Assembly: GCA_963804995.1 (NCBI GenBank)
Contig: CAWDSK010000004.1
Location: 96,001-160,000, forward strand
Source of the DNA: an uncultured Acidobacteriota bacterium
Lineage (GTDB): Bacteria > Acidobacteriota > Terriglobia > UBA7540
Length of the DNA stretch: 64,000 nt
Direction of reading: 5' to 3'
Shown here: positions 2,509-64,000 of the stretch, in pieces
Layout of the letters: every line of letters begins with the position of its first letter
Position numbering within the stretch: position 1 is the first letter of the stretch
Notes under the pieces: model-generated
Databases searched by the model: none
What the model was told of the DNA's origin: nothing
Seen by the model: only the letters and a program-made list of their open reading frames with translations
Made by a program: the position numbers and the translations under genes

Positions 2509-3219
2509 ATGGAGACGCCCATGCGCAGCCTGATCGTGAACGCCGATGATTTCGGCCAAAGCCCCGGAGTCAACCGGGGAATCATGCAGGCTCGCGAAAA
2601 GGGTATTGTGACCAGTACCAGCCTGATGGTGCGCTGGCCCGCGGCCCGGGAAGCCGCTGCCTACGCTCGCCGCAATCCCGACTTCAGCGTGGGTTTACAC
2701 CTCGATTTCTGCGAGTGGACTTACCGCGAGGGCGACTGGAAACCCCTCTACGAAGTGGTTTCCCTTTCCGATGGACCGGCCGCAGAGGCGGAGGTGTGGA
2801 GGCAGCTCGGAGCCTTCGAGGTATTGGTGGGGAAGCCCCCCACGCACCTGGATTCCCACCAACACATGCACTTAAGACCGTCAGTGCTCCCCCGAGTGGA
2901 AAAGATAGCCGCGACCCTGGGGGTACCGCTGCGCCGTCGTAGCTCTCAGGTGCGCTACTGCGGAGATTTCTACGGCCAGCTTGAGCACGGTGAACCCTTC
3001 CCCGAAGGGGTGAGCGTGGAACGGCTTCTGGGAATCTTACAAGCGCTCCCCGAAGGTTACACCGAACTCGGATGCCATCCGGGTTTCGCCGCAGACTTGG
3101 AGACCATGTACGGGCGCGAGCGGGAGACGGAACTAGCGACTTTGTGTGATCCGGCGATTCGCGCCGCGATTCAGACCTCTGGAATTAATCTCTGTTCGTT
3201 CGCGGGGCTGCGAGGCTGA
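2509..3219 (+). CDS. YdjC/ChbG-family carbohydrate deacetylase
   Basis: LIVNADDFG, VGLHLD, PTHLDSHQH and ELGCHPG motifs. Confidence 0.9.
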   Translation: METPMRSLIVNADDFGQSPGVNRGIMQAREKGIVTSTSLMVRWPAAREAAAYARRNPDFSVGLHLDFCEWTYREGDWKPLYEVVSLSDGPAAEAEVWRQLGAFEVLVGKPPTHLDSHQHMHLRPSVLPRVEKIAATLGVPLRRRSSQVRYCGDFYGQLEHGEPFPEGVSVERLLGILQALPEGYTELGCHPGFAADLETMYGRERETELATLCDPAIRAAIQTSGINLCSFAGLRG

Positions 3220-3222
3220 AAG

Positions 3223-4368
3223 ATGGCACGCGTCATCATCGGCGCCTATCTGGTTCGGATGCCATTGGGCGGATACCAATCCTTGGTTTTGCAATGGTTG
3301 CTGGGATTTCATCGTCTCGGGCACGAGGTCTATTGCGTGGAGAAAAGTGGATGGCCCGGGTCCTGCTACGACCCGACGGCCGATGATATGGGAGACGATT
3401 GCTCCTACGGCACCAGGGTCACCCATGATTTACTGAGCCAGTATGGTCTCGGCGACTGTTGGTGCTACGTGGATGCCACTGGGAAGTATCATGGGATGCA
3501 AAGGGAGCAAATTGAGAATATTTTCCAAACCGCCGATTTGTTCATCGATCACCTGCGGGATTGCGAGTGGGAGACGGAAGCCCGATCCACTCGGGTGCGC
3601 GCCATGGTGGACCAGGAACCAGGGTACACCCAGATGCGCATGGCCAATCGGCTGGAGCAAGGGCTGGCAGTTTCGCGATACGATCAATACTATACCGTTG
3701 GCCTGAGCCTAGGCCGAGGTGAGAGCACGGTCCCCACCCTGGGGCTTACCTGGCGACCTACCTTCAACCCCGCTGTAACCGATCTGTTCCCCTATAGGCC
3801 CCCGCCCGCGCGCTCCCCCTTTACTACCGTCATGATGTGGAAGCCCATAGGGCCCATCCGCTACCAGGGTGTCGCTTATGGAACCAAGGAAATGGAATTT
3901 CCCAAATTCATCGACCTCCCCCATCGCACCTCGATCCCTTTAGAACTTGCGGTGGGCGGGATGGAGGCTTGCCGCGAGGAATTGCGCAGAAGCGGCTGGC
4001 AGGTGCGTGATGGCCTGGAGGTCTCCACAACCTTCGATAGGTGGCGGCAATATATATCCGATTCGCGCGGTGAATTCAGCGTCTGCAAGAACTACTACGT
4101 CGCCACCCACACGGGCTTTTTCAGCGATCGCAGCGCGGCCTATCTCGCCGCCGGCCGGCCTGTCGTCATGCAGGACACAGGTTTCAGCGCTCACCTTCCC
4201 TGCGGCCGGGGCCTTTTCGCGGTGCGCAATGTCGACGACGCCGTGGCTGCCTTGGAGGCCATCGAAGGTGATTACGAACGGCATTCCAGGTGGGCGCGGG
4301 AGCTCGCCTGCGAGTATCTGGAAGCAGAAAAAGTCCTCGCCAGGATGCTGCGCGAGTTGGAACTGTGA
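3223..4368 (+). CDS. GT-B-like glycosyltransferase-related protein, paralog 3
   Basis: GFHRLGHEVYCVE; SRGEFSVCK...FSDRSAAYLAAGRPVVMQDTGF. Confidence 0.7.
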   Translation: MARVIIGAYLVRMPLGGYQSLVLQWLLGFHRLGHEVYCVEKSGWPGSCYDPTADDMGDDCSYGTRVTHDLLSQYGLGDCWCYVDATGKYHGMQREQIENIFQTADLFIDHLRDCEWETEARSTRVRAMVDQEPGYTQMRMANRLEQGLAVSRYDQYYTVGLSLGRGESTVPTLGLTWRPTFNPAVTDLFPYRPPPARSPFTTVMMWKPIGPIRYQGVAYGTKEMEFPKFIDLPHRTSIPLELAVGGMEACREELRRSGWQVRDGLEVSTTFDRWRQYISDSRGEFSVCKNYYVATHTGFFSDRSAAYLAAGRPVVMQDTGFSAHLPCGRGLFAVRNVDDAVAALEAIEGDYERHSRWARELACEYLEAEKVLARMLRELEL

Positions 4369-47177: not shown

Positions 47178-47253
47178 GCCGACGTAGCTCAGTTGGTAGA
47201 GCATCGGTTTCGTAAACCGAGGGTCACCAGTTCAAATCTGGTCGTCGGCTCCA
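47178..47253 (+). tRNA. tRNA-Thr(CGT)
   Basis: 76-nt cloverleaf GCCGACG...CGTCGGCTCCA, anticodon loop TTCGTAA, encoded CCA. Confidence 0.97.
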
Positions 47254-47258
47254 ATCCC

Positions 47259-48419
47259 TCAGTGATTTAGCCGCGAACATCGACCTTGACGAGTACCAAT
47301 TCGTACCACTACCGGCTTTACATTCAAAAGCACCTTCGCCACCTGATGAACGGCTTCGCGCTTCGCGGGGCTTTCCGCCTGCGTGTAAAGGTTCATCGTG
47401 GTGGAAATATCCGCGTGCCTTAAGAGTTCCTTCTGGACGGCCATGCTCGTACCGGCCCCGTGCAGGATCGACGAGAAGGTGTGGCGGAAGGTATGCCAGC
47501 CAATCTTCCCGATTCCGGCGAGTTCCGCCGCAGGCTTGATATGGTCGGTGAGCATAACCCCCTGCCAACGTGGTTTACCGCTGTCACCGGCAAAGATGTA
47601 GTCTGAGTGGGTCCCATACGCGGCCTTCTGCCTGAACAGCAAAAGGGCTTCGCCTAGTTCCGGGTCAATGGGCAGGGGCTTCGCCGATGCCTCGGTCTTG
47701 GTGTCGTACACCTTCCCGGCCACCACACTACGCTGAACCGACACGGCGAGGTTATCCCAATCAATGTCGCCCCACCGGAGGCCCAGAATTTCACTGATTC
47801 GGAGTCCCAGACATCCGGCCACAAGCACCATTGTCCGGTAAGGCTCCGCCAGTTCATGCAATAGCTTTTTGAATTCCTCCGCCGTTAGGACTCGGGGAAT
47901 TTTGGTGCGCTTGCTCGATTGTCGAACCAAATCAACTGGGTTTCTGTCGATCATCTCCCACCGGATGGCGCAGTTCAAAAGCCTGTGCATCATGTTCCGA
48001 ATGTGCGCCCTGGTGCTTTGCGTCCGGGGAATGGATTTAAGCCAGCCCTCGACGGCCACCGTCTTGACTGATTCAAGCGTCCGGGTTCCCCAAGCCGGAT
48101 GAATCCAGTTCTTGAAAATACCTCGGTAAGATCCTGCGGTATCTTCTCGCACACTGGTCGGCATCTCTTCAGTCGTGTAGCGGTCGATCAAGGCCCCTAC
48201 CGTAACAGCGTGAAATTGCGCTTCTGGCGCCAGAGAGTTGATCCGGGAGCGAAGGTGTTCTACGGCCCTCTGTGCGTCTGCCTCAGTAGCGAGTCTTTCA
48301 ACCGTTCCAATCAACACCGACTTACGCCTTCCGTTTTCCATGAAGCGGAACTGCCACACATCCGGCCCCTTGTTCCGCTTCCGTACTCTCAAATCTCCAA
48401 ATTGATATCGTGCCCGCAT
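47259..48419 (-). CDS. Tyrosine integrase
   Basis: GLRISEILGL, GWHTFRH, LLRHADISTTMNLY; GGAGG RBS. Confidence 0.95.
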   Translation of the reverse strand: MRARYQFGDLRVRKRNKGPDVWQFRFMENGRRKSVLIGTVERLATEADAQRAVEHLRSRINSLAPEAQFHAVTVGALIDRYTTEEMPTSVREDTAGSYRGIFKNWIHPAWGTRTLESVKTVAVEGWLKSIPRTQSTRAHIRNMMHRLLNCAIRWEMIDRNPVDLVRQSSKRTKIPRVLTAEEFKKLLHELAEPYRTMVLVAGCLGLRISEILGLRWGDIDWDNLAVSVQRSVVAGKVYDTKTEASAKPLPIDPELGEALLLFRQKAAYGTHSDYIFAGDSGKPRWQGVMLTDHIKPAAELAGIGKIGWHTFRHTFSSILHGAGTSMAVQKELLRHADISTTMNLYTQAESPAKREAVHQVAKVLLNVKPVVVRIGTRQGRCSRLNH

Positions 48420-48430
48420 GGTTCCTCCAG

Positions 48431-48643
48431 TCAGAATGAAGTTTCCGTGCGGCACGCCTGGCGGTTGGATTGTAGGCGCGAGTTAATCCAGCCGTCAAGC
48501 GCCGATGCACGATACCGCCAGAACTTCCCCACCTTAAAACCCGGCAACTCTCCGTGTTTCGTCATACGCTCGACCGTTTTCGGGTGTAGGCCCAAAATTT
48601 CCCCCACCCGGTCGCTTCCCAATAATGGCTCAATATCGACCAT
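48431..48643 (-). CDS. Excisionase-like HTH protein
   Basis: VGEILGLHPKTVERMTKHGELPGFKVGKFWRY. Confidence 0.9.
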   Translation of the reverse strand: MVDIEPLLGSDRVGEILGLHPKTVERMTKHGELPGFKVGKFWRYRASALDGWINSRLQSNRQACRTETSF

Positions 48644-48858
48644 CAGTAATCCTCCACGAGACTTGGATTGTTGTGATGGAGGCTTGGGCGGCAGGTACGT
48701 CGTTCTGGCAGTGAGACTTCTTTCGGTTAGGGATTTCCGAATTTTGGAAACGGATCGTACCGTGAACGGGTAGTAGGGGGTGGAACGGAAAAGACGGCGT
48801 AGTGGCTTCGCTCCCGTGGTAGAATCCCTCCAATTCGTCAATACCCGGAGGCGCTACC

Positions 48859-49065
48859 ATGCCCGATACAGAAAAAGGCTGTCCTAAGTGCCGTGCCAAA
48901 ATGCGAATGCTTGAGTCAGCCGCTTTTGCGTTGCCACCCATAGCCTTCAAACCTACGGGTGAGGCTACTCTGGCTACCGGAAGCGGTTTCCCTGTGGCCG
49001 TGTGGCATTGTGATAAATGTGGGTACGTCGAATTGTATTCTGCCGACGTTTTGTGGAAGCGCTGA
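48859..49065 (+). CDS. Small zinc-ribbon protein
   Basis: CPKC...CDKCGYVELY; GGAGG RBS. Confidence 0.7.
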   Translation: MPDTEKGCPKCRAKMRMLESAAFALPPIAFKPTGEATLATGSGFPVAVWHCDKCGYVELYSADVLWKR

Positions 49066-49238
49066 AGAAATCAAGCATCGCCTGTATCTTGAGTTTTTGC
49101 GCTTCAGAGAACGTGCTAGGTCTCACTATGTTCATAATCTCCACTCCTTGAGTAAGGTAGATACCCCCACTAGCTGACTGTGCCCGCCGGAAGTTTGCCA
49201 TCGGCAACTAACTTTTCTAAGATAATCCTGTCCAGCGC

Positions 49239-49994
49239 CTACGCCGCTACTCCAGCACCCAACCGCACCATGTCTATGTTTTGCCTTAGCTGAGAGCCGA
49301 GAAAACTAAGATCAAGCTGATGCATATGCTGGACCGGGAAACCGCCGTGCGTCCAAACCCGACAACCTAACGCTCGTACCTTGTTGCAAAAATCGTAGTC
49401 TTCGCCAATTTCAATGCGGAGGCCGTCACCGCTGAGGCGCATCTCAAAATGAGGCATGGGCATTTTTACAAATACCTCCCGGCGAATAAAAATCGCCCCC
49501 GTTCCACCACGGGAAATCTCCACAAATCTAGGTCCGGGTTGAATCCGCAAGTTGTCCGGCCCGGCAATTGTCAAAATGGCCGGGATGCCATCTAGACACC
49601 CCCAATACGGAAGGCAGATCACGTCGTGCTCCGGGCCAGCGGAATCCAAAACATCCAGCATGTTTAGCGGGGGCACGATATCGTTATCCAACATGCAAAG
49701 CCATTCAACGCCGAATTCCAAGGCGCGCTGTGCTTCGATATTACGCGCTCTCTGGACCGGAGCACAGTCAGAATTAAGGACAGTCACCAAGTTGTATTTC
49801 GTTTCTCGTTGCACTTTCACGAGGAACATAGCTAGCTCTGGCGACAGCCAGCCGCCCCTCTCAACGCTCCGGCACAGGACAGAAAGCAATAATTTTGGTC
49901 CCACGGAACCTCCCTGAGTTTTGAGTTTACAACACTTTTTGAACTTTCGCCCGCTGCCACACGGACACGGTGCATTGCGCGGGACAAGGCTCAT
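49239..49994 (-). CDS. SEC-C motif + GT-A-like glycosyltransferase fusion
   Basis: PRNAPCPCGSGRKFKKCC, then MLDNDIVPP, GTGAIFIRREVF, GEDYDFC. Confidence 0.75.
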   Translation of the reverse strand: MSLVPRNAPCPCGSGRKFKKCCKLKTQGGSVGPKLLLSVLCRSVERGGWLSPELAMFLVKVQRETKYNLVTVLNSDCAPVQRARNIEAQRALEFGVEWLCMLDNDIVPPLNMLDVLDSAGPEHDVICLPYWGCLDGIPAILTIAGPDNLRIQPGPRFVEISRGGTGAIFIRREVFVKMPMPHFEMRLSGDGLRIEIGEDYDFCNKVRALGCRVWTHGGFPVQHMHQLDLSFLGSQLRQNIDMVRLGAGVAA

Positions 49995-50278
49995 GCCCTC
50001 ACCTCCATGCCCGTGACTCGGTGCGGCGCCCGTGGCTTCCGCCAAGGCAGAAGTCCGAGGAGTGCCAAGGTGCGCCGAAGGGTCTCATCTGCGAACTCCG
50101 CAGCCTGAGCGTCCACGGCTGTCCCGGTTTCCGCTGCTCGCCAGTGCGCGTTCTCGGAAAGAACATGTTGCCGACCGGCAAGGTCTATTATCGGTTCCTT
50201 CCAACGCCCGCCTATCAACTCCCCCACCACGAACCGCGAAAAGTTCGCCGACGGATCTGAACTACGCTTTCTTCTCAT
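49991..50278 (-). CDS. Hypothetical protein
   Basis: ATGA overlaps with both neighbours. Confidence 0.55.
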   Translation of the reverse strand: MRRKRSSDPSANFSRFVVGELIGGRWKEPIIDLAGRQHVLSENAHWRAAETGTAVDAQAAEFADETLRRTLALLGLLPWRKPRAPHRVTGMEVRA

Positions 50279-50673
50279 TTCGATTTCCCCCATTCTTTGC
50301 TCCGTATCGCGCCAGCACATCCCCGAGGTTGGTCCGTTTCCCCCGTCCCCGCCCCGCTCGCCAGCCGTTCGAGCCTGACCTCGCCCAAGCGAAGGGAATT
50401 TGAAACCGGGATGACCAGTTTCAAGTTTTCCGCATCAACCCCTCCCCTCTCTTGGTCAGCGGTTTCCCTGTCGAAACTCAATAAAGCCCTCAAGAGAAGT
50501 TTCTGACTGTCGAGCAACGCCAAGGTCGGGGCCGGAACATGGCGAAGCCCGCCGAGCCGTCCAAGCCAGTAGGTTGTGTACTCGACAACGCCCCTCTCAA
50601 CTTCCGCATCTCCCGTCCCGGCTGTCCGCAAAATCTTCGCCAGCGCAGAGCCACGCTTCGGCTTCACAGGCAT
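50275..50673 (-). CDS. Hypothetical protein, possibly small-terminase-like
   Basis: Coupled operon member, helical, about 130 aa; the family call is a weak impression. Confidence 0.45.
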   Translation of the reverse strand: MPVKPKRGSALAKILRTAGTGDAEVERGVVEYTTYWLGRLGGLRHVPAPTLALLDSQKLLLRALLSFDRETADQERGGVDAENLKLVIPVSNSLRLGEVRLERLASGAGTGETDQPRGCAGAIRSKEWGKSK

Positions 50674-50740
50674 AAAGCACTCTCCGGTATTTAGGATTAG
50701 GCGCGGTATGCGCCCGAATGAAGGCAATGGAGGAGAACGA

Positions 50741-51652
50741 CTAGTTGGCCTTGTTCAACCGACGAAGCAGCGACCGCTGGCGCGAAAGTTCATCGAGCCT
50801 GCTCGTCATTTTCCGAAACCTGACATCCGACGCAGGCAGGCCAGCGCCAAGGAAGCGGGTAGCATCCTCGGACAATTTAGCGAACTCGCAGTCGATACCA
50901 GCGGCGTCAACCGCGCCAATCTTATACCGTTCGATGAACGCCGCGTCCTCTTTATCAAGGCGCGACTCCCGTTTGCGAATCGTGGTCTCGGGGTCCGCGA
51001 CCTTTACTAGGGCGAGACCTAAGTTTAGTTGCGCGCCCGTGCAATCCTCCATGCGCTTTTCAACCTCGTCGAGCGAAGTCATCCAGCGCCGGACCATGCG
51101 CGCGGTGTGCTTACACAGTTCGCCACCAGTGAGCTTCCGCACAATCTCATCAACTCCCATCGTGCGGATCTCGGCAACAAACTTCTGCGCCTCAAGAGTG
51201 ACTGGATCACCGGGGCGGTTGCGCTTGTTCATGGTGTATATGGGCTTCGCAACGGTCACCTCTGTGAGACAATCCCCAACTTTCTGGATGGCCTGCTGGC
51301 TCAGGTCCCCGCCCGCGAGGCAGGTAACCGCCTGATCCAAACGCTCGCCAAGCCCCTTCATCGCTGGCCAAGGCATAGTGCCGTTGAGTTGAACGTCGCG
51401 AGTGTCGGGCACGTCGCCACCCAGCCGACGGATGGCCAGCAACGCGGCGAGCAAGGGCTTTTCGGCTGGGGATTCGCCCTTTTGCAGAGATTCGACCATC
51501 TCGGAGCCATGCGCGGTGATTTCGTCAACGAGAGTCCTTTCGCGTGAAAGGTTTTTCTGAAGTCTGCTCTGCATCTGCCCAAGCTGCTGCCGGAGTTTAG
51601 CGACAAGCTCAGACAGGCTGGGTTCTTTAGATGTGGTTGGTAGAAGGTACAT
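50741..51652 (-). CDS. Hypothetical coiled-coil protein
   Basis: 303-aa ORF in operon orientation. Confidence 0.65.
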   Translation of the reverse strand: MYLLPTTSKEPSLSELVAKLRQQLGQMQSRLQKNLSRERTLVDEITAHGSEMVESLQKGESPAEKPLLAALLAIRRLGGDVPDTRDVQLNGTMPWPAMKGLGERLDQAVTCLAGGDLSQQAIQKVGDCLTEVTVAKPIYTMNKRNRPGDPVTLEAQKFVAEIRTMGVDEIVRKLTGGELCKHTARMVRRWMTSLDEVEKRMEDCTGAQLNLGLALVKVADPETTIRKRESRLDKEDAAFIERYKIGAVDAAGIDCEFAKLSEDATRFLGAGLPASDVRFRKMTSRLDELSRQRSLLRRLNKAN

Positions 51653-51888
51653 GGTTGACCTCGGGGTCGGTGGACTTCCGCGTCAGATGGACGCATTGTC
51701 GAAGGCGGATAACAACAGGAATAAGGTTTTTGGAAGCGAATAAACCCGTTATCAGCCCTTCCGCTCTCGGAATTCCAGTAAATCCAATAGACACGGCAAA
51801 GGGGTTCTCCGGTCTCAACGCGGTTTGGCGGCTGCTGGGAGCCGTTTCGGGGCACCTTCGGGCCGACTCGGGAAGCTTTTTGGAACTG

Positions 51889-52890
51889 TCACGCACACAA
51901 CTCTCCTGTTCGGAGATCCTTCGCATCCTTCCTGGTCGCGGATAAAACTAGAATCAGACCAGGAGGAGCACCAAAACCTTGCGCTTTGCAGCGGTCAACA
52001 ATTTCTTTTCCCGCCCTGATCTGGAGTTTGAGTAGTTCATCCAGAGTAGTCCACCGCTCATGGCGCAGTTCGCTGTACACGCCCTGGCAGACTTCCCGGA
52101 ACGTCGGCTCGTGCTCATACCCTGTCAGACCGAGACTGGGATCGAAACCCACGGCTTTCCAAATTTCGGAAACTTGATCCTCCTCGGTTGTCTTGGATTC
52201 GACAAACCCTTTAGAGGGGATGGCTTGGGGTGAGGTCAGGTCAGCCTTTCCCGAAGGTCTTTCCCTTACTCTTATCTCTTCCGCGCTGTCCGCCGGTTCT
52301 GCGGACGCGCAGCTAACGGCATTGGAACCATTTTGCAGAGAGGGAGAATCCTCCAAAGCCGTAGGAGTAGCAGTAGCCATAGGACAAGCCAAAGCCTTAG
52401 CCCTAACCTGACCTGACCCCAAGCCCAAGCCCAAGCCTAGGCAACCATTGGGTAGCCAACGGCTAGCCATTGGCTGACCACGCTCCAAAGCCTCCGAGAT
52501 TTCAGGGGTCGGTTCGGGTCCAATCCGTTCGTGACGTTGCTCCTTCTCGCCTCTCCGTGAGAGAGGGGGCAACCTTCCCTCTTTCCCTTTACCCCTGAGC
52601 CCGTACCAAGTTCCCCAGGTTTTGGCGTGCTCGTCAACCCACGGGTAGAGAATTCCCGCTTCTACCAAACTGTTTAGGATTGCGACTACATCCTCCGGGG
52701 CCACATTAGGCCGGACACAGGCATAGCACCGTGCCCAAATCTGGCGCGGCTCGCATTCAAAGACTCCGTTCGCTAGACTGAGTGGCAAAAGCCACGGGAC
52801 CTCTGCACGCACCCATGCGGGTTCCACTTTTGCTATTCTCTGACTCGACCATATTCCTTCACCGTCCACTATCCGTTTTGGCATTTCCAT
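51889..52890 (-). CDS. Phage-type replication initiator-like protein
   Basis: MPKRIVDGEGIWSS N-terminus, winged-helix-like ILNSLVEAGILYPW, GLGLGLG linker. Confidence 0.6.
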   Translation of the reverse strand: MEMPKRIVDGEGIWSSQRIAKVEPAWVRAEVPWLLPLSLANGVFECEPRQIWARCYACVRPNVAPEDVVAILNSLVEAGILYPWVDEHAKTWGTWYGLRGKGKEGRLPPLSRRGEKEQRHERIGPEPTPEISEALERGQPMASRWLPNGCLGLGLGLGSGQVRAKALACPMATATPTALEDSPSLQNGSNAVSCASAEPADSAEEIRVRERPSGKADLTSPQAIPSKGFVESKTTEEDQVSEIWKAVGFDPSLGLTGYEHEPTFREVCQGVYSELRHERWTTLDELLKLQIRAGKEIVDRCKAQGFGAPPGLILVLSATRKDAKDLRTGELCA

Positions 52891-53204
52891 TATTCCTCAA
52901 CAGCCATCATTCCCGGTTTCACGTCCTCACCGAGTCGGAAGACAATGGGCCGTCGCCCTCGCCGCACCAAACGAATCAACCCCCGGCCTCGCCGCACGGT
53001 TGCACGGAACAACTTTGCGCGGATCTCGCCGCCGTGCTGGTAGTGAACGAGGTCCTTCCTAACCGAAGACGTGGCTTGAAAGCAGAAATCAACCAAATCG
53101 TCATCATTGATTTCCATGTCGGCTTGATGACCAAGGCAAACCAAAAACGCAGCTTCCCAGAGGTCACTGACGCGGATCGTGTTTGCTGTGCTTGCGCCGT
53201 TCAT
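52890..53204 (-). CDS. Small phage-type protein (DUF5659-like)
   Basis: VSDLWEAAFLVCLGH; coupled to both neighbours. Confidence 0.6.
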   Translation of the reverse strand: MNGASTANTIRVSDLWEAAFLVCLGHQADMEINDDDLVDFCFQATSSVRKDLVHYQHGGEIRAKLFRATVRRGRGLIRLVRRGRRPIVFRLGEDVKPGMMAVEE

Positions 53205-53497
53205 GCGCCCGTCGCCTCCGCGAATTTCTGGGCCTGGAGCTGATGAAGCAAAACCTTCAATTGTTCGAGGTCGCCACCGACCGTGGCAGCGGGCGTGAAT
53301 ATCGAGCCCATCCGAGTTGCCAATCCCTCCCCAAGTACACGGACAACCGCTCGCGCCTTGCGCCCGGTCATTCCCCGCCTGCCACGGGCAAGCAGGCTGA
53401 CATAGCTATAATCACAATCCGCCAGGAGCGCCGTATCGAGATGCCTGTATTTCAAAAATCGCTGCGCTTCGCCTATTGGGCTAGATGGCTTAACCAT
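53201..53497 (-). CDS. HTH DNA-binding protein (Cro/XRE-like)
   Basis: ALLADCDYSYVSLLARGRR; first gene of the leftward operon. Confidence 0.6.
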   Translation of the reverse strand: MVKPSSPIGEAQRFLKYRHLDTALLADCDYSYVSLLARGRRGMTGRKARAVVRVLGEGLATRMGSIFTPAATVGGDLEQLKVLLHQLQAQKFAEATGA

Positions 53498-53584
53498 TTT
53501 AGACTCCGGTTGTTGGGATTAGGTGGGAAGGCGAAGTAATCTGCAGGAAGGGCCAGCTACGCTCACAGTACCAAGTACAAAGCT

Positions 53585-53614
53585 ATTATAAGGCCACACA
53601 CAGCTTGAAGTCAA
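53585..53614 (-). promoter_or_regulatory. Promoter of the leftward operon
   Basis: TTGACT-18 bp-TATAAT on the minus strand. Confidence 0.6.
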
Positions 53615-53902
53615 GCGGCGTGACACAGTATCTCCATCCTTTATGGTAAGGCGGGACGTTACACACTCCCGCTGGCGACAACAAAAATCTGGGGTTTCGT
53701 GGAAATCGGTAACCTTTTTCCAAAATTTGGAAAATCCGGCGCTCATCGGAGGGGACTGCACTTCGCAGGCAAGCGCGGTCTCAGTGGGGAGGCATGACTA
53801 CCCGCTGCTAATCGAGATCACCGGCTATGTATGCCGGTAGACAAAGGCGGGCAAATCCTCCGTCAGCGCGAACAAATAGTTTGGGATTCCCTGCGCGAAG
53901 CG

Positions 53903-54826
53903 TTAGCTTTCGATTGTTAATGCTAGCTCTTGCTGAACTTCACGTGGTAAGGAGCGAACCGCTTTATGATGGGCACGTACCATCAGTGCTGGCGCTTCTT
54001 CATGGTCCGAAGCGTGAATCATGTAGTACATGATTTTGCCCTTGGCATTCTTATCGTAAATCGGATACGCTGCGGCGAATCGGTATCCAAGCTCCTCCTC
54101 AAACCTCTTGCGAACGAGTTCCGCAATTTCCCATGTGGTCTTGTATTTTAGATCAGTCCAGTCAGCCTTACCCCACCATTTGGAAAGCTTATCCTTCTCG
54201 CGGGTACCCGAAATCGCCCGGTGAAGCCACCCAACACCCAGAAAGTAAAGTAGCTCGATCTTATTATTCGGTGGCTTTTTGTACGCGGCAAGCATCGTCA
54301 GGGTTTCCCAATGGCATTCAAAGGTTCTCTGGTCAAGAAGGCAGAATGTGGCTTCCTTTTGCGTAATTGCACCCCCACTCAATATTGTTTCAACATTAAC
54401 ATTGAAGTCGCCTGGTACAACTTGGATCCTCCGAAAGAGCTTTTTGCCTTTCTTGTCGTAGGCTTCTGGCTGAGCCGCCTGTAGCTTCTTTAACGCCTTG
54501 ACTCCGCGCGTGGACAACTCACAAAGGAAGAAATGGCGCAGCCACTTGGGTTCACTTTCTAGCACTAGGGCAGCAGTCCAGTAATCCAGCTTGTCAAAAT
54601 ACTGCGGTCCCGCAAAGCCGTCGATGTAGGCTCCATGCTTCGTGATCTGAACGAAGAACTCCAAATAGCGCTGGACGAATCGCGCCTTGTGTTCCGTCCA
54701 AATTGGCTCTTGAATTCGCTTGTATCTGCGTGTTTTCACCTGAAGGGATGGGGGTAGGTCTGGAAATAGAGGGGCGGCATAAGGAGATTCCGTTGATTCG
54801 TTTGCTCGACTTCCCTTCGAGTTCAT
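53903..54826 (-). CDS. Three-Cys-motif partner protein (TcmP-like)
   Basis: WTEHKARFVQRY, YIDGFAGP, GDFN, FCLLDQ, YYMIHASDH; coupled to the DUF5131 gene. Confidence 0.85.
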   Translation of the reverse strand: MNSKGSRANESTESPYAAPLFPDLPPSLQVKTRRYKRIQEPIWTEHKARFVQRYLEFFVQITKHGAYIDGFAGPQYFDKLDYWTAALVLESEPKWLRHFFLCELSTRGVKALKKLQAAQPEAYDKKGKKLFRRIQVVPGDFNVNVETILSGGAITQKEATFCLLDQRTFECHWETLTMLAAYKKPPNNKIELLYFLGVGWLHRAISGTREKDKLSKWWGKADWTDLKYKTTWEIAELVRKRFEEELGYRFAAAYPIYDKNAKGKIMYYMIHASDHEEAPALMVRAHHKAVRSLPREVQQELALTIES

Positions 54827-55626
54827 GAAGTACCTTTAAACTCTGCCTCCAAAGTCACCGCCAAGCTTCGCCGCAGGGCTCGGCCAGGTATGGGCGCTTC
54901 AGCTGTGAATGGAAACTCATCGTAGGTCTTGCCAGACAGTTCCCGGCCCGTCTTCTTCTTTTGGACTCCTCCCCACTGCTTGAAAAAGAAGGGAACCTTA
55001 TATAGACGGCATTGGTGGAGCAGATTTCGGACCCAAAATTCCTGCATTGGTCTTGCTCCAGGTCCGCTCTCTCCGCCCACTATTACCCAATCGATATCGG
55101 AGAGGTCAATGGGACCGAGGTCCTCAAGTAGTGGTTCTATTGATAAGAACTTCACTCCCGCTGGAGTATTACGCAGGTGTTCTATGCGAGGACTGCCGTG
55201 CTTTATGTTCTCGACGCTAACTCCCCACCAGATGTGACGGGTAGAGGTTGCAAATTTCAGCGGACCGTTCAACATTTGCCCCAGTCGCTCGGAGCGTTTT
55301 GTGAGAATCTGGTACGTGTGCCAACTCGCTTTCATCATTACGCTAACGACCCTAAGGATGAATTCGTCGGGCACGTCCACGTGGAACAAATCGCTCATGG
55401 AGTTTACGAAGACCATGCTTGGCGATGTCCACTCGAACGGCTCAAAGAGCTTCTCTGGAACGAGGCGAAGATCAAAGCCCAATTCGTATGGGTGGCCTTT
55501 CACCCCCCGAAACCGTTCGGCAAAGGTCTCGGCATAGCAGTGCAGGCAGCCTGGACTAACCTTTGTGCAACCCCGCACCGGGTTCCATGTCGTATCCGTC
55601 CACTCGATCTTGGTCTTTGATGCCAT
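54823..55626 (-). CDS. Phage Gp37/Gp68 (DUF5131) protein
   Basis: IEWTDTTWNPVRGCTKVSPGCLHCYAE, FVNSMSDLFH, WVIVGGESG, FFFKQWGG. Confidence 0.95.
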   Translation of the reverse strand: MASKTKIEWTDTTWNPVRGCTKVSPGCLHCYAETFAERFRGVKGHPYELGFDLRLVPEKLFEPFEWTSPSMVFVNSMSDLFHVDVPDEFILRVVSVMMKASWHTYQILTKRSERLGQMLNGPLKFATSTRHIWWGVSVENIKHGSPRIEHLRNTPAGVKFLSIEPLLEDLGPIDLSDIDWVIVGGESGPGARPMQEFWVRNLLHQCRLYKVPFFFKQWGGVQKKKTGRELSGKTYDEFPFTAEAPIPGRALRRSLAVTLEAEFKGTS

Positions 55627-56194
55627 CCTGAGTCTCAATTCTAACCATTATTTTGCCAGTTCGGTATACACAAGATCGTTTGAGGCGCATGTAGTTCTCT
55701 CTGGAGCTGAGGTAATCCAATCCAAGGTAACGTCGCCTTGGTCTTTCGCGTCGCACACGCGGGCTTGGCTGACCAGCGCGCAACCTTGCCTTCCAAATTT
55801 TGGAAACTTGCCCCGGCGGGCGCTTGGTCGGCTGGATGGGGAGTGTGTCGGTAAAACCTGTCCCCGCTTTGTACGGGTTTTTCGGGGAACACCGGTTCCC
55901 CCCGGGTACCGGTGTCAGGTGGCCTTCCTCACTGATAAAGGACTCCTGCTTTCCTATGCTATAGTCCGCAAGCTTCAAAGTTCCAACGCGGAATTTTGAT
56001 TTCCTGTCCCCTCCTCTCGTCTCACGCAGTCCATTCTCAGATTCATCCTTCGGTCGTTGCGCACGACCTATTTCCGGCTCTGGGCCGGGAGGATGACGGG
56101 GAGATGCTCGCGGCAAGCCATCAGAGAATGGCCGTTAAGCACGACCGTTTTCCAAATTCTGGAAATAGGGGGGGCAGGTAGGTGATTCTGCGAC

Positions 56195-56224
56195 AAAAAA
56201 GGGGCGCCGAAGGGGTGGCGCCCC
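56195..56224 (-). terminator. Rho-independent terminator
   Basis: GGGGCGCC-loop-GGCGCCCC followed by T6 on the minus strand. Confidence 0.75.
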
Positions 56225-56279
56225 GCTGGGGTGAGGTGACAGTAACCCCAGCATCAGAAGTAATCGATTTGATCCGTAA
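56195..56279 (-). ncRNA. Putative small RNA, about 85 nt
   Basis: TTGACA-17-TAGCCT promoter at 56314-56286, hairpin GCTGGGG...CCCCAGC, then a terminator. Confidence 0.5.
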
Positions 56280-56540
56280 CCTTCAAGGCTAGCCCACCAG
56301 CAGCAGTGTGTCAAGCATACTAAACGCGCGTAGCGGACTACTTTGACTTTCTTCGCTTGCGGCTTGCCCTCGCGGTTCCGTTATGGCAGACTTGGGCGAA
56401 GCCATCCGCCTAATGGCCGAAATTGACGCGGCCATTCCCAAGTGGCCGATGGAAAGCGGCTCATGTGCAAGAGTCCAGAGACAGTCTAGCGAAATATAAA
56501 AAGGCCACTGGCGAGCGCTCCTTAAAGGGGGTTTCCAGAA

Positions 56541-56930
56541 ATGACAGCACAGGAAATGGCCGACCGGATTCTCGACTTAATTGCAATGAGGAATGACACC
56601 ACTTTTGCCGAAATCTTCAACGTAATCGGGGAAGAAGCGAAGGGCGACCTGATATGGGAAATCTCTCCCAACACGGTACTTTGGACGGGAATGTCGCAAG
56701 CACTGCTCGATGCCTTCAAGATAATGCATGACAAGATCATCCCTCATCCGACCGATTTCTTGGTATATCTCTACGATGGTGGAGCGCTTGACCTTCCAGT
56801 CGCCAAAACAATTTCTAGGACTGGGTACAAGAAACCACATTGGCTTCCCGTTGTCTTCCGCTTCAGAAACGAGGTAGAACGCCAAGGCCGAGAAAAAAAA
56901 TACATTGAGCGTGGTGACTGCGAATTCTGA
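56541..56930 (+). CDS. Hypothetical protein
   Basis: 129-aa ORF, YLYDGGALDLP...KPHWLPV; bracketed by palindromes. Confidence 0.7.
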   Translation: MTAQEMADRILDLIAMRNDTTFAEIFNVIGEEAKGDLIWEISPNTVLWTGMSQALLDAFKIMHDKIIPHPTDFLVYLYDGGALDLPVAKTISRTGYKKPHWLPVVFRFRNEVERQGREKKYIERGDCEF

Positions 56931-57009
56931 TTGCTCTAGATTTAAGACGACACCACCACCGACCGCCACTTTCCAAATTTTGGAAACTGTCGCGCCTCGG
57001 CGGGTTCCG

Positions 57010-57408
57010 TCATGGGGTCGGGGCCGCTGCGACTCGGTATAGATCCGCCGACAATCTCATCAGGGCCTCGGGCGTCAACTGGTTTCGCGGCGAGAGGCCG
57101 AGCGCAGATGGCATTAGAGTGTCACCCGGCGCCGTCGGATTCTCGCCCATTATTTCGAGCAATTCATCCTCAAGTTGCGCGGTCGATGCCTCTGCTGGGT
57201 CGCGCAATGGCTCAAATAAAAACTGCATTGCCAACCCGCCGATCAGCGTGGCAAGAGTTTCCCGATAGACTTCCCCTTCGCACAACTCCCCGCGTTCGAT
57301 CTTCGACGCGGACTCCGTACTAAGCCCCGCTTGCTGGGCGAGGGTTTCCTCTGTCCATCCTAATTCGGAAACGGCGCGGCGCAGGGCGTCCACGACATCG
57401 TTGGACAT
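57010..57408 (-). CDS. XRE-family HTH protein
   Basis: LGWTEETLAQQAGLSTESASKIERG; GGAGG RBS. Confidence 0.75.
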   Translation of the reverse strand: MSNDVVDALRRAVSELGWTEETLAQQAGLSTESASKIERGELCEGEVYRETLATLIGGLAMQFLFEPLRDPAEASTAQLEDELLEIMGENPTAPGDTLMPSALGLSPRNQLTPEALMRLSADLYRVAAAPTP

Positions 57409-57549
57409 CGGACCTCCTGACTTTATTGTTTTTTGGAAAGCGAAGGCGGCTCGGCAGGAAGGACTTACAAAGAAATTATCGCATTGCGCGGACGATTCGG
57501 GGAAACAAAATCTCACGGGGAGTTTCCGAAATTTGGAAAGGGATCTCGC

Positions 57550-57852
57550 TTATTCATTGTGACTCTTGAGAATGATGCTGTTCATTGGTCCCTGTACATC
57601 CGTCCTCGCTATCGCTTGGTCCCTGACCCTCAATACGTCACTCCGCGACTGCCTGTCACACCATGAGGTTTGGATTATTAGTTGCCAGTGGGGAAGTTGT
57701 GCAGGCTTATTCCATCGAGCTGTTGTGCCTTTGATTCCTATAGAACGCAGGGCCGCTATGAGCTTACCCTTGATGTCGTTTCTTTCGTCTTCGGATAGAG
57801 CAGTCCAATCTCGCATAGCTTGGAGTATCACACCACTCCGGGCCGGAAACAA
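57550..57852 (-). CDS. Hypothetical protein
   Basis: ORF between two palindromes; start may be 57816. Confidence 0.5.
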   Translation of the reverse strand: MFPARSGVILQAMRDWTALSEDERNDIKGKLIAALRSIGIKGTTARWNKPAQLPHWQLIIQTSWCDRQSRSDVLRVRDQAIARTDVQGPMNSIILKSHNE

Positions 57853-58138
57853 GGGGCGAGAAATTCAAACTGTACCATCACCAGAAGTTTGGATTCCTTG
57901 GCTACGGAGGCACGAGTACGCTCTTTTGGTTCTCGTAACAGGTTGGGGGTTGATTCAGCCTCCAAGCTATTTTTGGATGATTTCTGGATTTCCAAATTTT
58001 GGAAAGTCGCTTGCTTCGCATTCCCAGCAGGAGTAATTCTGTAACAAATTTCGGTAGACTAGTTTTGAGAAACTTTGCGGCCGTTGAGCATGACTCCCAC
58101 CTTGAGAGCCCCACCCAACGACCATAGGAGGCCGCAAC

Positions 58139-58615
58139 ATGAAGAACTTGTTTACTGGTTTACTTTGCACCATCATTCTCACCGTTCCCCGTGTGGCTGT
58201 CGCAGGGGACAACGGTTACAAGGTCAACTATGACGGCGGCTCGTTTTCTGACTTGAAGGCCGGAACTGGCTTGCAAATGTACCTCGAACCGCATCAGATC
58301 CGGTTCGTGAAAGATAAGGCGGATATAGCCACAATTCCGGCTTCCGCGATTACTGAAATCAGCTACGGCCAGGATGTGCACCGCCGAGTCGGAACGGCGG
58401 TTGCTGTAGGGATCGCCTCATTCGGAATAGGCGCACTGACGGCGCTCAGCAAGTCCAAGAAGCACTTCATCGGCCTGACCTGGGCCAATGGTGACCAAAA
58501 GGGTGGGCTTGCAATACAGTGCGACAAGAATAACTATCGCGGCATCCTAGCCGGGCTAGAGGGCATCACCGGCAAGAAGGCCGTCAACTCAGAGACGATG
58601 ACGGTTAAGAATTAA
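58139..58615 (+). CDS. Secreted hypothetical protein
   Basis: AGGAGG RBS, signal peptide, glycine-rich hydrophobic segment. Confidence 0.8.
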   Translation: MKNLFTGLLCTIILTVPRVAVAGDNGYKVNYDGGSFSDLKAGTGLQMYLEPHQIRFVKDKADIATIPASAITEISYGQDVHRRVGTAVAVGIASFGIGALTALSKSKKHFIGLTWANGDQKGGLAIQCDKNNYRGILAGLEGITGKKAVNSETMTVKN

Positions 58616-59038
58616 GGCAACCCTCTCCAGCGTGCCGGTGAGTGTAACGCTGAGTGCTATACTGATAATCGAGGTCCCCGAGGCATAGGCCACCCTCAGA
58701 TTGAAACCCACCCTCCTCATGCCAAGCCTCGGGGCCTCACGTTTAACTCGCCCTGACCCTTTCCAAATTTTGGAAAGCCAGCCGCACCCCCCTCTATTCC
58801 ACGCTGGCGACCGATGGCTCCCTCTGCGGCCTGTTTTGCCTGCGCCCCTTCTTTAGTTCCTCGCGAAGTTTCAGGCCAAGCCCTACCCTCTGGTCGTAGT
58901 CAAGGTGTCGGCGCAGTAGGTTCATGGCAATGCGGAGTTCCACTTTGGATGGTTTCTGGTATGATTGCAGCCTTCAACCTAGGATTGGCCCCCACAGTTG
59001 CTTAGATTCTGGGATGAAAGTAAGGGAAAAGGGAAACG

Positions 59039-59302
59039 ATGAGACCTAAACGAAACCCTGCGGAGGCATCTCTGAAGTCGGCGATTGGCTACCCTGAAGT
59101 GTGCCCCTATTGCAATAAACCGGGCCTTGTTCAATCCGTTTCTGGCAGAAATCTCGTATGCCAGGGATGCGGGCGCATCGTGGTGATAGACGAGAATGCT
59201 CTAGCGGCACAAAACAAGATGGCAGAATATCGGAATTCGCTATCGAGCCGCAGAAATCTCAGGCATACGCGCAGTCGAAGTGCCATAATTCTGGCCGCCT
59301 AG
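59039..59302 (+). CDS. Possible small zinc-ribbon protein
   Basis: CPYC...CQGC; purine-rich leader. Confidence 0.4.
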   Translation: MRPKRNPAEASLKSAIGYPEVCPYCNKPGLVQSVSGRNLVCQGCGRIVVIDENALAAQNKMAEYRNSLSSRRNLRHTRSRSAIILAA

Positions 59303-59409
59303 CCCTGCCTTGTGGCATCGAAGAAATTTGGTCAAGGTTGGGGAAGTCCTTCGGATCGCGCAACCGTAACCGACTCCACATGCGGTCCCGTTCCCACAAT
59401 CTCTGTTCC

Positions 59410-59752
59410 CATGTTTTCGGCCCCCCTCCCGCTTCGCCACCTGAAGGGCGCGATTTAGGGTGATTTCCTCACTTGCCACCTTCTCGGCAAGTTCGGGGCG
59501 CTTTGTCTACAGTTCGCGGGCACGGGCCATTGTAGCTTCGGATACGCCAGCTTCTTTGGCCGACGTGCAATGAGATTTAGAGCCGTGGTGTTTCTTGCCC
59601 GCACCAGGTCTCCCATCAACTGAGGGGAGACCTGACAATCTCTTACCATCCTCTGTGCGGGGTTGTTCCTTGGTTGCCTTGCTGCGCTTCCCATTCGATT
59701 CAGCCTTGATCTGTGCCTGCCGCTTCGCCCATTGGTTGCTCTCCAGTTCCAT
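59410..59752 (-). pseudogene. Remnant of a phage ParB-associated-type HTH protein with an internal TAG
   Basis: AKEAGVSEATMARAREL*TKRPELAEKVASEEITLNRAL continues in frame across the stop at 59507-59509; boundaries approximate. Confidence 0.55.
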
Positions 59753-60145
59753 CTTTACCTGAAGGACGGAAATCGTTCCCGGCTGGTTGCGCCAATAAGA
59801 AATTTCCGTAGTAATGCGTGTGCTCCAGAGAGCGTCCTGAGCACCCCCGCCTGGTCTTTTTTTCGACACCGGGGGGTGTCGCCCACCGCCTGCGCCCAGG
59901 CCCACAAACCCCAGCAAACATGCGGGTATTGGCGCAGTCCAGCGCATTCCAGTAATACTCTGCGTGGCAATGCACACAAATAATATATTTGGAAGAGTGT
60001 AACCTATTTACTTCTGCGCAGATGTGGGGCAGTCAATCTAGGACACCACGCCGACTGGTACGGTTCGTGCGGGGAAAGGTTACGGGAAGAGCGGATGTGT
60101 CAACACCCGTTCTTCCCTAACCACACAGCCTACACAGGAGGCAAT

Positions 60146-60574
60146 ATGGCTACCCAGAGTTTAACCACCTACGTTACTCATGGCAACCCAGACCCTCGGC
60201 GTATTCCCCTAGATGATCCTCGGGTTCACAGACTCCCGCCGGGGCCAGAAAACCCCGACCTGAATTTTGACGACTACCAGTTCCAGGGCGGGCGGACGGG
60301 GCACCAAGTTGTCGATACGGTCGGGGGCGGTGGTTGCACACCAATCCCTGCCATCCGACTCGCTGTCGAAGAATCGCAGGGACACCGGTTCGCATCTGCG
60401 GCGACGGCGGAAAATCTTCGCAAGATCCCGCGCCTTCAAATGCGCGTCTTTACGGCCTTTTACTGGGGGTTCGCCACACATGCGGAGATCGGTTCCGCAC
60501 TCGGGATCACGCGCCTTAATTCGAGGGTTTTGCTTTGCAGGGCACGAAAGCATCTTGAGGCGCTGGCACACTAA
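60146..60574 (+). CDS. Protein with C-terminal sigma70 region-4-like HTH
   Basis: AGGAGG RBS; THAEIGSALGITRLNSRVLLCRARKHL. Confidence 0.65.
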   Translation: MATQSLTTYVTHGNPDPRRIPLDDPRVHRLPPGPENPDLNFDDYQFQGGRTGHQVVDTVGGGGCTPIPAIRLAVEESQGHRFASAATAENLRKIPRLQMRVFTAFYWGFATHAEIGSALGITRLNSRVLLCRARKHLEALAH

Positions 60575-60958
60575 ATTGTGCTTTGCGGTTGTAACGTCTG
60601 TCTCTACAGTCAACTTATCAGAGGATTCACACCCGCCGACCAATCGGCAGGTTTCGAGTGGTGAAAGCGCAGCGTGGTCGAACAACCGGGGTCGGCACCT
60701 GTCGGCCCCGGCTTTTTAAAGATTGATCTCCCCTCCATCGTAGCCCCCAGGAGCGCTCTAAAGCCGGGGTCGGCTCCCAACCGACCCCGGCCCACCTTTC
60801 CAAATTTTGGAAAATTGGCAATCGGCCTGCCCATTATCGGGCGAAGTTATCCGCGCAGTTTGGCGGGGAATGGCCGAACGGCACGTCACAGTCTACTCAT
60901 ATTGTGACATTGGAACCCCGATTGCCGTTTGTAAGTCCTTTGGATTCGGTTCTACAAA

Positions 60959-61190
60959 ATCTCATATCTCGTGTGTAATGTGACATTCGCGGGTAATTTG
61001 AGACTCTGCATTGCCTACCTTGGTGTGGATGTCCGCCCATACCCCTTGGTGACAGGGGAAAATTTCGCGCACCACGGTTGACCCCTGTGCCACTGAGCGC
61101 ACCACCGGAGACGCACCATGAGGCTAAGCCCTTTGTTTGTGAGGCTAAGCCCTTTGTTTGTGATGTCACGTTACATACCATGTGTGGCAT
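60959..61190. other. Two inverted 28-bp (11-6-11) recombinase-site-like sequences enclosing a 21-bp tandem repeat
   Basis: 60959-60986 and 61163-61190, with 14/16 inverted identity at their inner ends; TGAGGCTAAGCCCTTTGTTTG twice at 61119-61160. Confidence 0.55.
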
Positions 61191-61226: not shown

Positions 61227-61808
61227 ATGGCACGCTCTAACCGGCAAGCACTCACGACGGACGAACTTCTGGCAGTCCTGAAGGTAGCCAAGGAGCACAG
61301 CACGCGGGATTGGGCACTTCTGGTCACAATCTATCGGCATGGCTTGAGGGCATCGGAGGCAGCGGCGCTAACGCTTGGCGACATGCAGGACGGTCAATTG
61401 ACCGTGGCTCGGGTGAAGGGGTCACTTAAGACCACACAGCCGGTTTGTAAGCACCCCGGCCAACCGCTGCTTGATGAGGTCAAGGCATGGGCGTCTTGGA
61501 TGAAAGGGCGCCCGCAAGATGGAAGTGGAGCAGTGTTCACTTCCCGGAAGGGTGGGCACCTGACGCGGGAACAGGTTTATCGGATATTCCACCAGCACGC
61601 TGAGACCGCCAAACTCCCACCGGAGAAGCGCTTTGTCCACGTCCTGAAACACAGTCTGGCGAGTCACCTAATCGCGGGCAATGCGAACCTTGCAATGGTG
61701 CAGGTAGCCCTCGGGCACGCCAGCTTGTCGAGCACCCAGGCTTACATTCACGTTTCCGACGCCCAGGCCGCAGTCGCCAGTCAGCGAGCGTTGATGTCAC
61801 TCTTCTGA
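61227..61808 (+). CDS. Short FimB/FimE-like tyrosine recombinase
   Basis: 193 aa, catalytic domain only; YRHGLRASE, ARVKGSLKTTQP, VFTSRKGGHLTREQVY, HVLKHS, LGHASLSSTQAY. Confidence 0.88.
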   Translation: MARSNRQALTTDELLAVLKVAKEHSTRDWALLVTIYRHGLRASEAAALTLGDMQDGQLTVARVKGSLKTTQPVCKHPGQPLLDEVKAWASWMKGRPQDGSGAVFTSRKGGHLTREQVYRIFHQHAETAKLPPEKRFVHVLKHSLASHLIAGNANLAMVQVALGHASLSSTQAYIHVSDAQAAVASQRALMSLF

Positions 61809-62009
61809 TTCCTGGAATGCCGCTTAAAATGGCCCGCTGTCGCGTCCAGTGCCACGCAGACGCACGCGGGGTAAAAGCGCAAGGGGTTCTGGGCATGGCT
61901 AAGGACGAGTACCAGTTGAGTACCACTTCACCGTTCTAGTGGTCCTTTTGCGTGCTTTTCGGTTGCCAAGCGTGCCGCAATATCAACGAGATACCCTAGT
62001 GCTGCCAGA

Positions 62010-62060
62010 TTCGTAAACCGAGGGTCACCAGTTCAAATCTGGTCGTCGGCTCCAATCCCT
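62010..62060 (+). repeat. att repeat: duplicated 3' half of tRNA-Thr
   Basis: Identical to 47209-47259. Confidence 0.95.
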
Positions 62061-63018: not shown

Positions 63019-63339
63019 TTACGATACGGCGGCGCGCAGTCTAAACTGAATCCCTTCCTGATCGAGCAAATAGGAAACGATGGCAAACAGATTTTGCGCT
63101 TGGGGATTACCCTGCGGTCCGAGCATCCGCATCAGGCTTTTGGGCGAGCGGTGGGTGGCCTCGGCCAACTCGACAAATCCGATCGTGGCATTGATGTAGT
63201 CGCGGAGCACGGTCTTGCCCGTCTCGACGTCTCCGTTCAGCATGGTTTCCACACCCTCGCGGAGAAGTTCCCGGCGAAAGGCGGGATCGCGTTGGACGCG
63301 CGCTTTGATGGTTTCCTTAAAATCGCGAGTCAGAGCCAT
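63019..63339 (-). CDS. Addiction-module HTH antitoxin
   Basis: MALTRDFKETI...LRDYINATIGF...SLMRMLGPQGNP. Confidence 0.85.
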   Translation of the reverse strand: MALTRDFKETIKARVQRDPAFRRELLREGVETMLNGDVETGKTVLRDYINATIGFVELAEATHRSPKSLMRMLGPQGNPQAQNLFAIVSYLLDQEGIQFRLRAAVS

Positions 63340-63492
63340 TATTGGTCTCCCTCTTTCTTCGGCTAAATTGCCATGGCCTAACCGCGTCACTGCCATAGTC
63401 ACCTTCGCGGCAGCCGGCGCGTGCAGGTTGTCAAACCAAATCGCGAAGGGACCGTTTCCCTCGTGGTCCAGATACTCGCGCACATCGACCAA
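63340..63492 (-). pseudogene. RelE/HigB-like toxin lacking its C-terminal half
   Basis: VREYLDHEGNGPFAIWFDNL...RLGHGNL runs in frame into the antitoxin; the GPGYR segment is absent. Confidence 0.75.
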
Positions 63493-63815
63493 ACCCAATG
63501 GTAACATATCTGGTACCAATGCCAAGCAGGTAGTTACAAGCCGCAGTTAATTCTCTCGTGCTCCTAGACTTTCCCTTCGATCGCAAACCCACAGTCAATT
63601 TCCAAGACGAATTGACCGTGGCCACCTCCGGGTCACACAACTTCCGGCGCTGTTCGAAGGGGTGATTGCAATCATGCGATGTAGGGGTAGGGCTCTCGAC
63701 TCCGTCGGGACAGGTTGCCCTACCCGGCGTTCCGCATGATGAATGCGGAACCAGGGGGCGGGTCGCCGCGGCGACTCCCCCTACGGCAGAAGGGTGTGTG
63801 GACACAACCCTTGCG

Positions 63816-64000
63816 TTAGCTGGTGGCTGTGGCGAAGAACTGCTTGACGTGCAGCTTCTTGGCGTGGCGCTTCGCTTGCCACAGATCGTAGGCAAGCTGC
63901 ATCTGCAACCAGTGCTCCGGCGTGCTCCCAAACGCCTGGGCGAGGCGCAGCGCCATTTCCGCCGTGATTCCGGAGCGGCCGTTGAGAATCGACGAGAGGG
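63816..64000 (-). CDS. higA: HigA-family antitoxin (start outside window)
   Basis: LSSILNGRSGITAEMALRLAQAFGSTPEHWLQMQLAYDLW. Confidence 0.9.
   Translation of the reverse strand, partial: LSSILNGRSGITAEMALRLAQAFGSTPEHWLQMQLAYDLWQAKRHAKKLHVKQFFATATS

Follow-up and report, generated by a model that had tools for sequence, protein, structure and literature searches.

Palindromes of an integrated acidobacterial element match genome-wide sites of an SU10-like phage clade and may mimic them

The locus analysed here raises the question of why an integrated element should carry ten copies of a 17-bp palindrome, nearly all of them between its genes. It lies in a 64,000-nucleotide stretch of DNA from an uncultured Acidobacteriota bacterium (Terriglobia; UBA7540; GenBank assembly GCA_963804995.1, contig CAWDSK010000004.1, positions 96,001 to 160,000), hereafter the window, whose coordinates are used throughout. 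The element measures 14.8 kb, from tRNA-Thr(CGT) to a 51-bp identical direct repeat. The original prediction for this DNA had offered three readings of the palindromes: joints at which a cassette array of non-integron type recombines, parS-like or packaging/self-marking sites, or operators of a helix-turn-helix (HTH) protein of the element. The comparisons presented here incline us, by a modest degree, towards a fourth, in which the satellite-like element mimics the genome-wide binding sites of ~97-kb SU10-like helper phages of Terriglobia.

The ten-site feature is real. All ten coordinates given in the original prediction were correct and all ten sites are present, but the copies are not all identical: the 17-mer is exact in only five of them and the others have one mismatch. 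The exact copies are located at 53717..53733 (minus strand, about 100 bp upstream of the leftward core promoter), 56970..56986, 57989..58005, 58760..58776 and 60797..60813, and the one-mismatch copies at 48734..48750 (TTTCCGAATTTTGGAAA, 88 bp upstream of the excisionase gene xis), 52156..52172, 55790..55806, 56149..56165 and 57523..57539 (minus strand). As predicted, nine are intergenic and one (52156) lies within the replication gene rep, in-frame in a linker; with 72% of the element coding according to our list of open reading frames (ORFs), the probability of at least nine of ten intergenic sites is 8e-5. The copies at 53717 and 57523 do have the opposite orientation, but the centre base is the sole difference and eight of ten in one direction is not significant (p=0.11). 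Even spacing within the element was not significant either (p 0.28). The expected element-specificity was borne out by genome-wide counts: all ten sites with ≤2 mismatches fall inside the element, and the 7,552,380-base genome holds just eight sites outside it, each with 3 mismatches (chance expectation at ≤3 mismatches, 0.17 matches per window). The host chromosome, 136 genomes of the order and 400 of the class are nearly free of the site, and no further element with several copies of the window motif emerged from pattern searches at the level of genus, order, phylum or class. One intergenic variant of the motif occurs in an unpublished genome of the same family (G116, L145:1501-1517); otherwise the unpublished genomes (G032, G110-G116) contribute to search tallies alone.

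The same palindrome is repeated in a phage clade. An exact-motif scan of viral contigs returned at least 110 loci, mostly single chance matches in AT-rich DNA. Among five viral matches examined, four contained one site each and the fifth, G544 (L025), contained 13 sites that differ from the window motif at two positions at most (control, 0). G544 is a complete phage of 97,230 bp with direct terminal repeats, an SU10-type adaptor, RecT and 28 tRNAs; no integrase was found among its 146 ORFs in a Pfam scan. The core common to element and phages is TTCCAAANTTTGGAA, which G544 holds 21 times at ≤1 mismatch and five of its relatives 15, 3, 18, 7 and 11 times (controls, 0); another complete phage, G843, contains seven exact 13-mers. 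At the same threshold the host genome holds 12 copies, 10 of them inside the element, and three of 400 other class genomes carry one exact core copy, equal to the control. Site density is about three times higher in the element than in G544 (0.67 vs 0.22 per kb). Element and G544 gave no DNA or protein match other than the motif and a tRNA stretch. A bin of the same genus as the host (G016) includes a 17.7-kb contig of the G544 clade with five exact copies of TCCAAANTTTGGA, which is suggestive only as a link of the phage clade to the host genus. As side observations, G544 also carries a glycosyltransferase/methyltransferase/epimerase cluster with an acyl carrier protein and a peptide deformylase (L330-L331, 35144-40526 and 45210-49400), and two unrelated phages (L015 and L086) have the exact window motif once each, in-frame directly after a helix that looks DUF3102-like by eye, with no further copy in either record.

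Related phages carry other palindromes in place of this one. AGTGCAGNNCTGCACT is found 22 times in G537 and 18 times in G538, with one copy in rep as in the element, and G550 has 12 copies of GTTCACTNAGTGAAC; we call such genome-wide arrays lattices. The best palindrome of G551 reaches four copies, and none stood above background in the 60-80 kb read of G552, G553 and G554. Even spacing was marginal in G537/G538 (p about 0.04) and not significant in G544 (p 0.09). The centre base is unconstrained in the phage motif, and many phage sites lie immediately before ribosome-binding sites while others lie in coding linkers, including that of a giant virion gene. In 118 pairwise site comparisons between relatives about 75% identical, 57 sites were shared, 48 were not spanned and 13 were scored absent with collinear flanks; the pairs are not independent, and two of the 13 absent sites are 2-mismatch variants. 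The free centre and the turnover of sites within unbroken synteny fit sites that are gained and lost in place, as protein-binding sites would be, rather than recombination joints.

A protein that reads the sites may be encoded by the phages, and two candidate families were found. The best candidate is A2, whose gene in G544 spans 80191-80970. Its structure model (predicted local distance difference test, pLDDT, 91) bears a weak likeness to ParB/Noc DNA-binding domains (Foldseek 7ng0, prob 0.99, E 0.45; VIA 1vz0, Z 7.0 over 107 amino acids), Atlas scores of 0.85-0.86 point weakly the same way, and one of 59 members matches DUF3102. In all three lattice types an A2 gene is present with a site inside or adjacent to it, and the putative recognition helix is 11/15 identical among phages with the same motif and 1-3/15 in phages with other motifs. 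Chromosomal A2 members occur in 14 of 137 order genomes, many with a single in-gene palindrome of 8+1+8 build. The one intact A2 homologue of the host differs in its helix and in the palindrome that its gene contains; it is located at G000:C5:732287-732985 (L486) beside repeated PD-(D/E)XK-like and HNH genes, and modules like this one are present in many Terriglobia bins. The second candidate, A4, is an orphan phage ParB of the G544 clade (2710-3567 in G544). Its ParB N-terminal domain matches PF02195 above cut-off in the protein of the G016 contig and in many homologues, the G544 copy falling below; a site lies 25 bases before the A4 start in G544, and eight of ten A4 loci have the core. A4 ranks second because its helix does not track the motif, varying among same-motif phages (6/15 to 10/15) as it does in motif-less ones (7/15, 8/15). 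Profile searches found neither A2 nor A4 in the element, and A4 had no match in the host genome, whose sole PF02195 match is on contig C2; no ParB gene was recognisable in the element. The element sites combine four properties: within the host they are specific to the element, they are shared with phages, they are dense, and no candidate reader accompanies them.

Mimicry of phage sites could account for this combination. The phages scatter the palindrome every 3-5 kb over their own genomes, where a dimeric, phage-encoded ParB-type HTH protein would bind it; after infection, the excised element would be coated by the same protein and hence be handled as phage DNA. The most plausible benefit, which takes about half of the weight if the model holds, would be a share in whatever marked phage DNA receives, be it protection, replication or packaging. 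Titration of the phage protein as a defence would come second, and detection of an infection through the xis and core promoters third. Exact 17-mers beside newly acquired cargo might have arisen by short-patch conversion through the phage recombinase, which is a guess. Of the three options originally offered, parS-like self-marking fits best, but the motif belongs in common to a phage clade and its reader is likely phage-encoded.

Several points weigh against this model. The satellite status of the element can only be inferred, because no terminase or capsid-hijacking gene was identified. The motifs also differ in detail: the element has an outer T and, in 3 of 20 half-sites, accepts a G at one of the inner positions, while G544 favours an outer A and never has that inner G. 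The link to the host consists of one phage contig in a bin that is 8% contaminated, and neither a link through spacers of clustered regularly interspaced short palindromic repeats (CRISPR) nor a G544-like prophage was found in the host genome. As to the readers, identity of the A2 helix co-varies with identity of the whole protein and is partly plain kinship; A2 is present without a lattice in G552 and G553, G551 has merely four palindrome copies, and A4 occurs without its lattice at two of ten loci. A second element (L185/L184), whose rep belongs to the same family and which also has a tRNA, int, xis, a further recombinase and cargo, counts in favour of the model: TCCCGCGNNCGCGGGA occurs six times in its 9.4 kb, at gene boundaries (L185:5607-9423), with no A2 or A4 gene in its available part. 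On the other side, no helper was found for its palindrome among eight viral loci, which include one GC-70% contig with four copies and no shared genes. Finally, at least four copies of any palindrome occur in three of 77 rep-family loci of at least 6 kb (two independent), so the trait is patchy across these loci.

The strongest rival, in our view unlikely, is that the palindromes are orphaned self-sites of an element that descends from a phage lattice or once carried its reader, for example in the decayed frame at 59240-59800. The rep family is indeed common to the element and the lattice phages G537/G538 and G550, the last of which (a 94-kb phage, L529-L533) also has a 42% homologue of the short second recombinase of the element, and the interrupted frame is HTH-like. 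Orphaned sites would, however, hardly be expected to be near-perfect and denser than in the phage, or to flank cargo whose homologues are without them. The remnant frame contains another palindrome and matches neither A2 nor A4, and the similarity between element and G544 does not extend beyond the motif and the tRNA stretch.

It is less probable still that the copies are dispersed operators of an HTH protein of the element, whether the Cro-like product of 53201, the XRE-like product of 57010 or the sigma-region-4 product of 60146, with the match to phages due to convergence or borrowing. The intergenic position of nine sites, the placement of copies 1 and 3 ahead of xis and the main promoter, respectively, and the presence of copies on either side of the XRE gene would suit such a role. 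Nevertheless, a consensus promoter scan placed none of the ten copies on a predicted promoter, homologues of the three proteins are absent from the lattice phages searched, and the reading gives no reason why 15 bp should be identical to the phage lattice.

That the copies are joints of a cassette array of non-integron type, on which either the integrase or the second tyrosine recombinase would act, we regard as a poor prospect, and on present evidence a cassette array is not supported. Eight copies lie in the cargo half and bracket most cargo units, the element has a recombinase to spare, and the exact 17-mers that stand beside new cargo count in favour of joints. The enrichment in the cargo half, however, is not significant (p=0.12). 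At ten loci with cargo homologues (one for the TcmP pair, one for ORF 56541, six for ORF 57550 and two for ORF 58139) the motif was found in none within 3 mismatches, and no equivalent palindrome was evident in the 200 flanking bases; these homologues are 72-79% identical, too diverged for exact breakpoints. Ten homologues of the second recombinase likewise had no motif nearby (0 of 15 stretches), and that protein was dropped as the enzyme cognate to the palindrome. Sites of tyrosine recombinases are about 28-34 bp long, against which 17 bp is short, and the phage sites, with their free centre, turn over while their flanks are kept. That the site belongs to a host protein used by phage and element alike, so that no helper relationship would be needed to account for the shared motif, is hardly credible given that the host chromosome and the order and class genomes are almost free of it and that related phages switch motif.

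Known systems offer partial parallels. Phage-inducible chromosomal islands (PICI) and P4-like satellites integrate at tRNA genes and have an int-xis-rep core with defence-like cargo, and the element resembles them in these traits and in size. Unlike them, it has no P4-type primase, AlpA, terminase, terS or capsid-size or redirection gene detectable with Pfam, PHROGs or NCBIfam, and its rep is of phage replisome type. Integron attC sites and the pdif cassettes of Acinetobacter are also repeated sites that bracket genes, with a different site length and turnover. The accessible part of PMC5016525 adds nothing on dispersed phage centromeres. Such centromeres are known from N15, and repeats from phiC31.

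Four published cases come nearest. The Vibrio satellite PLE mimics one pac site of its lytic helper ICP1 to exploit a phage protein (PMC11417361), and like the element it copies a short cis-acting helper site; PLE copies one packaging site, whereas the element would copy a genome-wide, multi-copy site ten times. KorB of RK2, a ParB-family CTPase clamp, reads short palindromic OB operators distant from promoters (PMC11790492), as the putative reader of the element's palindromes would; KorB is encoded by its own replicon, whereas no ParB gene was recognisable in the element and A2, the phage protein favoured as reader, has no CTPase domain. Mycobacteriophage L5 carries about 24 related stoperators, mostly intergenic, bound by one phage protein. 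That protein is the immunity repressor of a temperate phage, and the stoperators themselves lack symmetry and have a set orientation (PMC5712189), whereas the palindromes here are symmetric, with a free centre in the phages and no significant orientation bias, and the Pfam scan of G544 gave no integrase. ParB-fold proteins are often found in phages that have no ParA, and some of them direct DNA modification (PMC12704722, PMC13229309); the stem 'palindrom' appears in neither of these two papers, and their accessible portions describe no genome-wide site array or satellite copy. The literature searched, which includes few subscription papers, did not yield any account of a satellite that copies a palindrome spread over a phage genome.

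The remaining features complete the picture of the element. It is integrative, with an integrase, an excisionase and direct attachment (att) repeats at a tRNA gene. The target, tRNA-Thr(CGT), spans 47178..47253 (plus strand, ARAGORN), and comparison of the repeats placed the identical 51-bp cores of attL and attR at 47209..47259 and 62010..62060 (both plus). The leftward core genes, all on the minus strand, comprise the tyrosine integrase (47259..48455; PF00589 E 8e-21; phrog_1), the excisionase-like HTH_17 protein Xis (48431..48646; PF12728 E 6e-12; TIGR01764 above cut-off), an ORF with a SEC-C motif and glycosyltransferase likeness (49239..49988; Pfam/PHROGs), a 303-amino-acid helical ORF without family or Atlas match and with a poor AF2 structure model (50741..51652; pLDDT 48), and rep (51889..52890), a phage-type replication protein by a weak match to phrog_1408 (E 0.045) whose N-terminal family is known from phages and elements of Acidobacteriota. 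Each of the 20 genome records that contain a rep relative is labelled Acidobacteria or Terriglobia. The first gene of the leftward operon (53201..53497, minus) is Cro-like by eye, family searches giving no match, and is preceded by a predicted strong sigma70-type promoter (53585..53614, minus) identified by an 11/12 consensus match only.

The cargo begins with the TcmP and DUF5131 pair (53903..55638, minus), whose earlier labels agree with the family matches TIGR04474 and PF07505 and which corresponds to the PADLOC candidate system PDC-M41 (PDC-M41A/B). The region previously labelled as a small RNA contains a 3'-gene-end remnant: its 61 bases at 56393..56453 (plus) match, at 87-90%, the 3' ends of coding genes in two other genomes (G039 and G044) and may be the tail of a type IIG restriction-methylase. 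Then follow a phrog_7134 ORF (56541..56930, plus; PHROGs), the XRE-like HTH gene (57010..57408, minus), whose label is backed by an HTH_3 match (E 5e-4) that is weak and below cut-off, an ORF (57550..57852, minus) whose homologues in four genomes of the same genus all lack the motif at their flanks, and an ORF with a signal-peptide-like N-terminus by eye and homologues without the motif (58139..58615, plus). The interrupted frame (59240..59800, minus), earlier called an HTH remnant, retains that likeness by eye, but searches, which count as weak evidence, gave it no Pfam match and no homologue, longer ones included; the different palindrome inside it (59608-59631) is longer, single-copy and unique in the genome. 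The sigma-like gene (60095..60574, plus) was confirmed as a sigma70 region-4 HTH ORF (PF08281 E 7e-6). The last gene encodes the second, short tyrosine recombinase, FimB/XerC-like in family searches and elsewhere unlinked to the motif (61227..61808, plus); upstream of it, 61119-61160 is a perfect 21-bp tandem duplication. No head or tail family was found among the 21-22 ORFs with Pfam, PHROGs and NCBIfam, several ORFs being unassigned, and a weak terS HTH match on xis is the sole virion-type exception.

Three further observations concern the surroundings and the host. About 90 bp before attR (61905-61999) are 72-87% conserved in many elements of the order and at G000 C6:842677, and are possibly integrase arm sites. 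Immediately beyond attR (63019-64000) lie HTH genes that resemble addiction modules by eye, one overlapping frame being broken. Elsewhere in the host, TTCGCGAATTCGCGAA occurs in about nine copies with conserved flanks (C5:1049697-1094586, L326-L328), which lie before paralogous genes for membrane proteins within an island close to tRNA-Lys; this cluster was set aside as a promoter-type repeat and looks like a local regulon operator.

More tentatively than for this one element, we see a serious possibility that large acidobacterial phages mark their whole genome with a lineage-specific palindrome and read it with their own ParB-like protein, and that satellites forge this code at higher density, being handled as phage DNA or soaking up the reader. 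If this were wrong, phage-wide palindromes with lineage-specific sequence would remain as an observation. If it is true, the motif would predict which phage is parasitised, so that uncultured satellites could be paired with their helpers from sequence, and orphan ParB-like proteins and genome-wide palindromes in lytic phages would gain a natural test system. Satellite mimicry would then reach beyond single packaging sites to a mark spread over the whole genome, and the retention of the sites by an element that has no such protein would show that they are worth having in trans.

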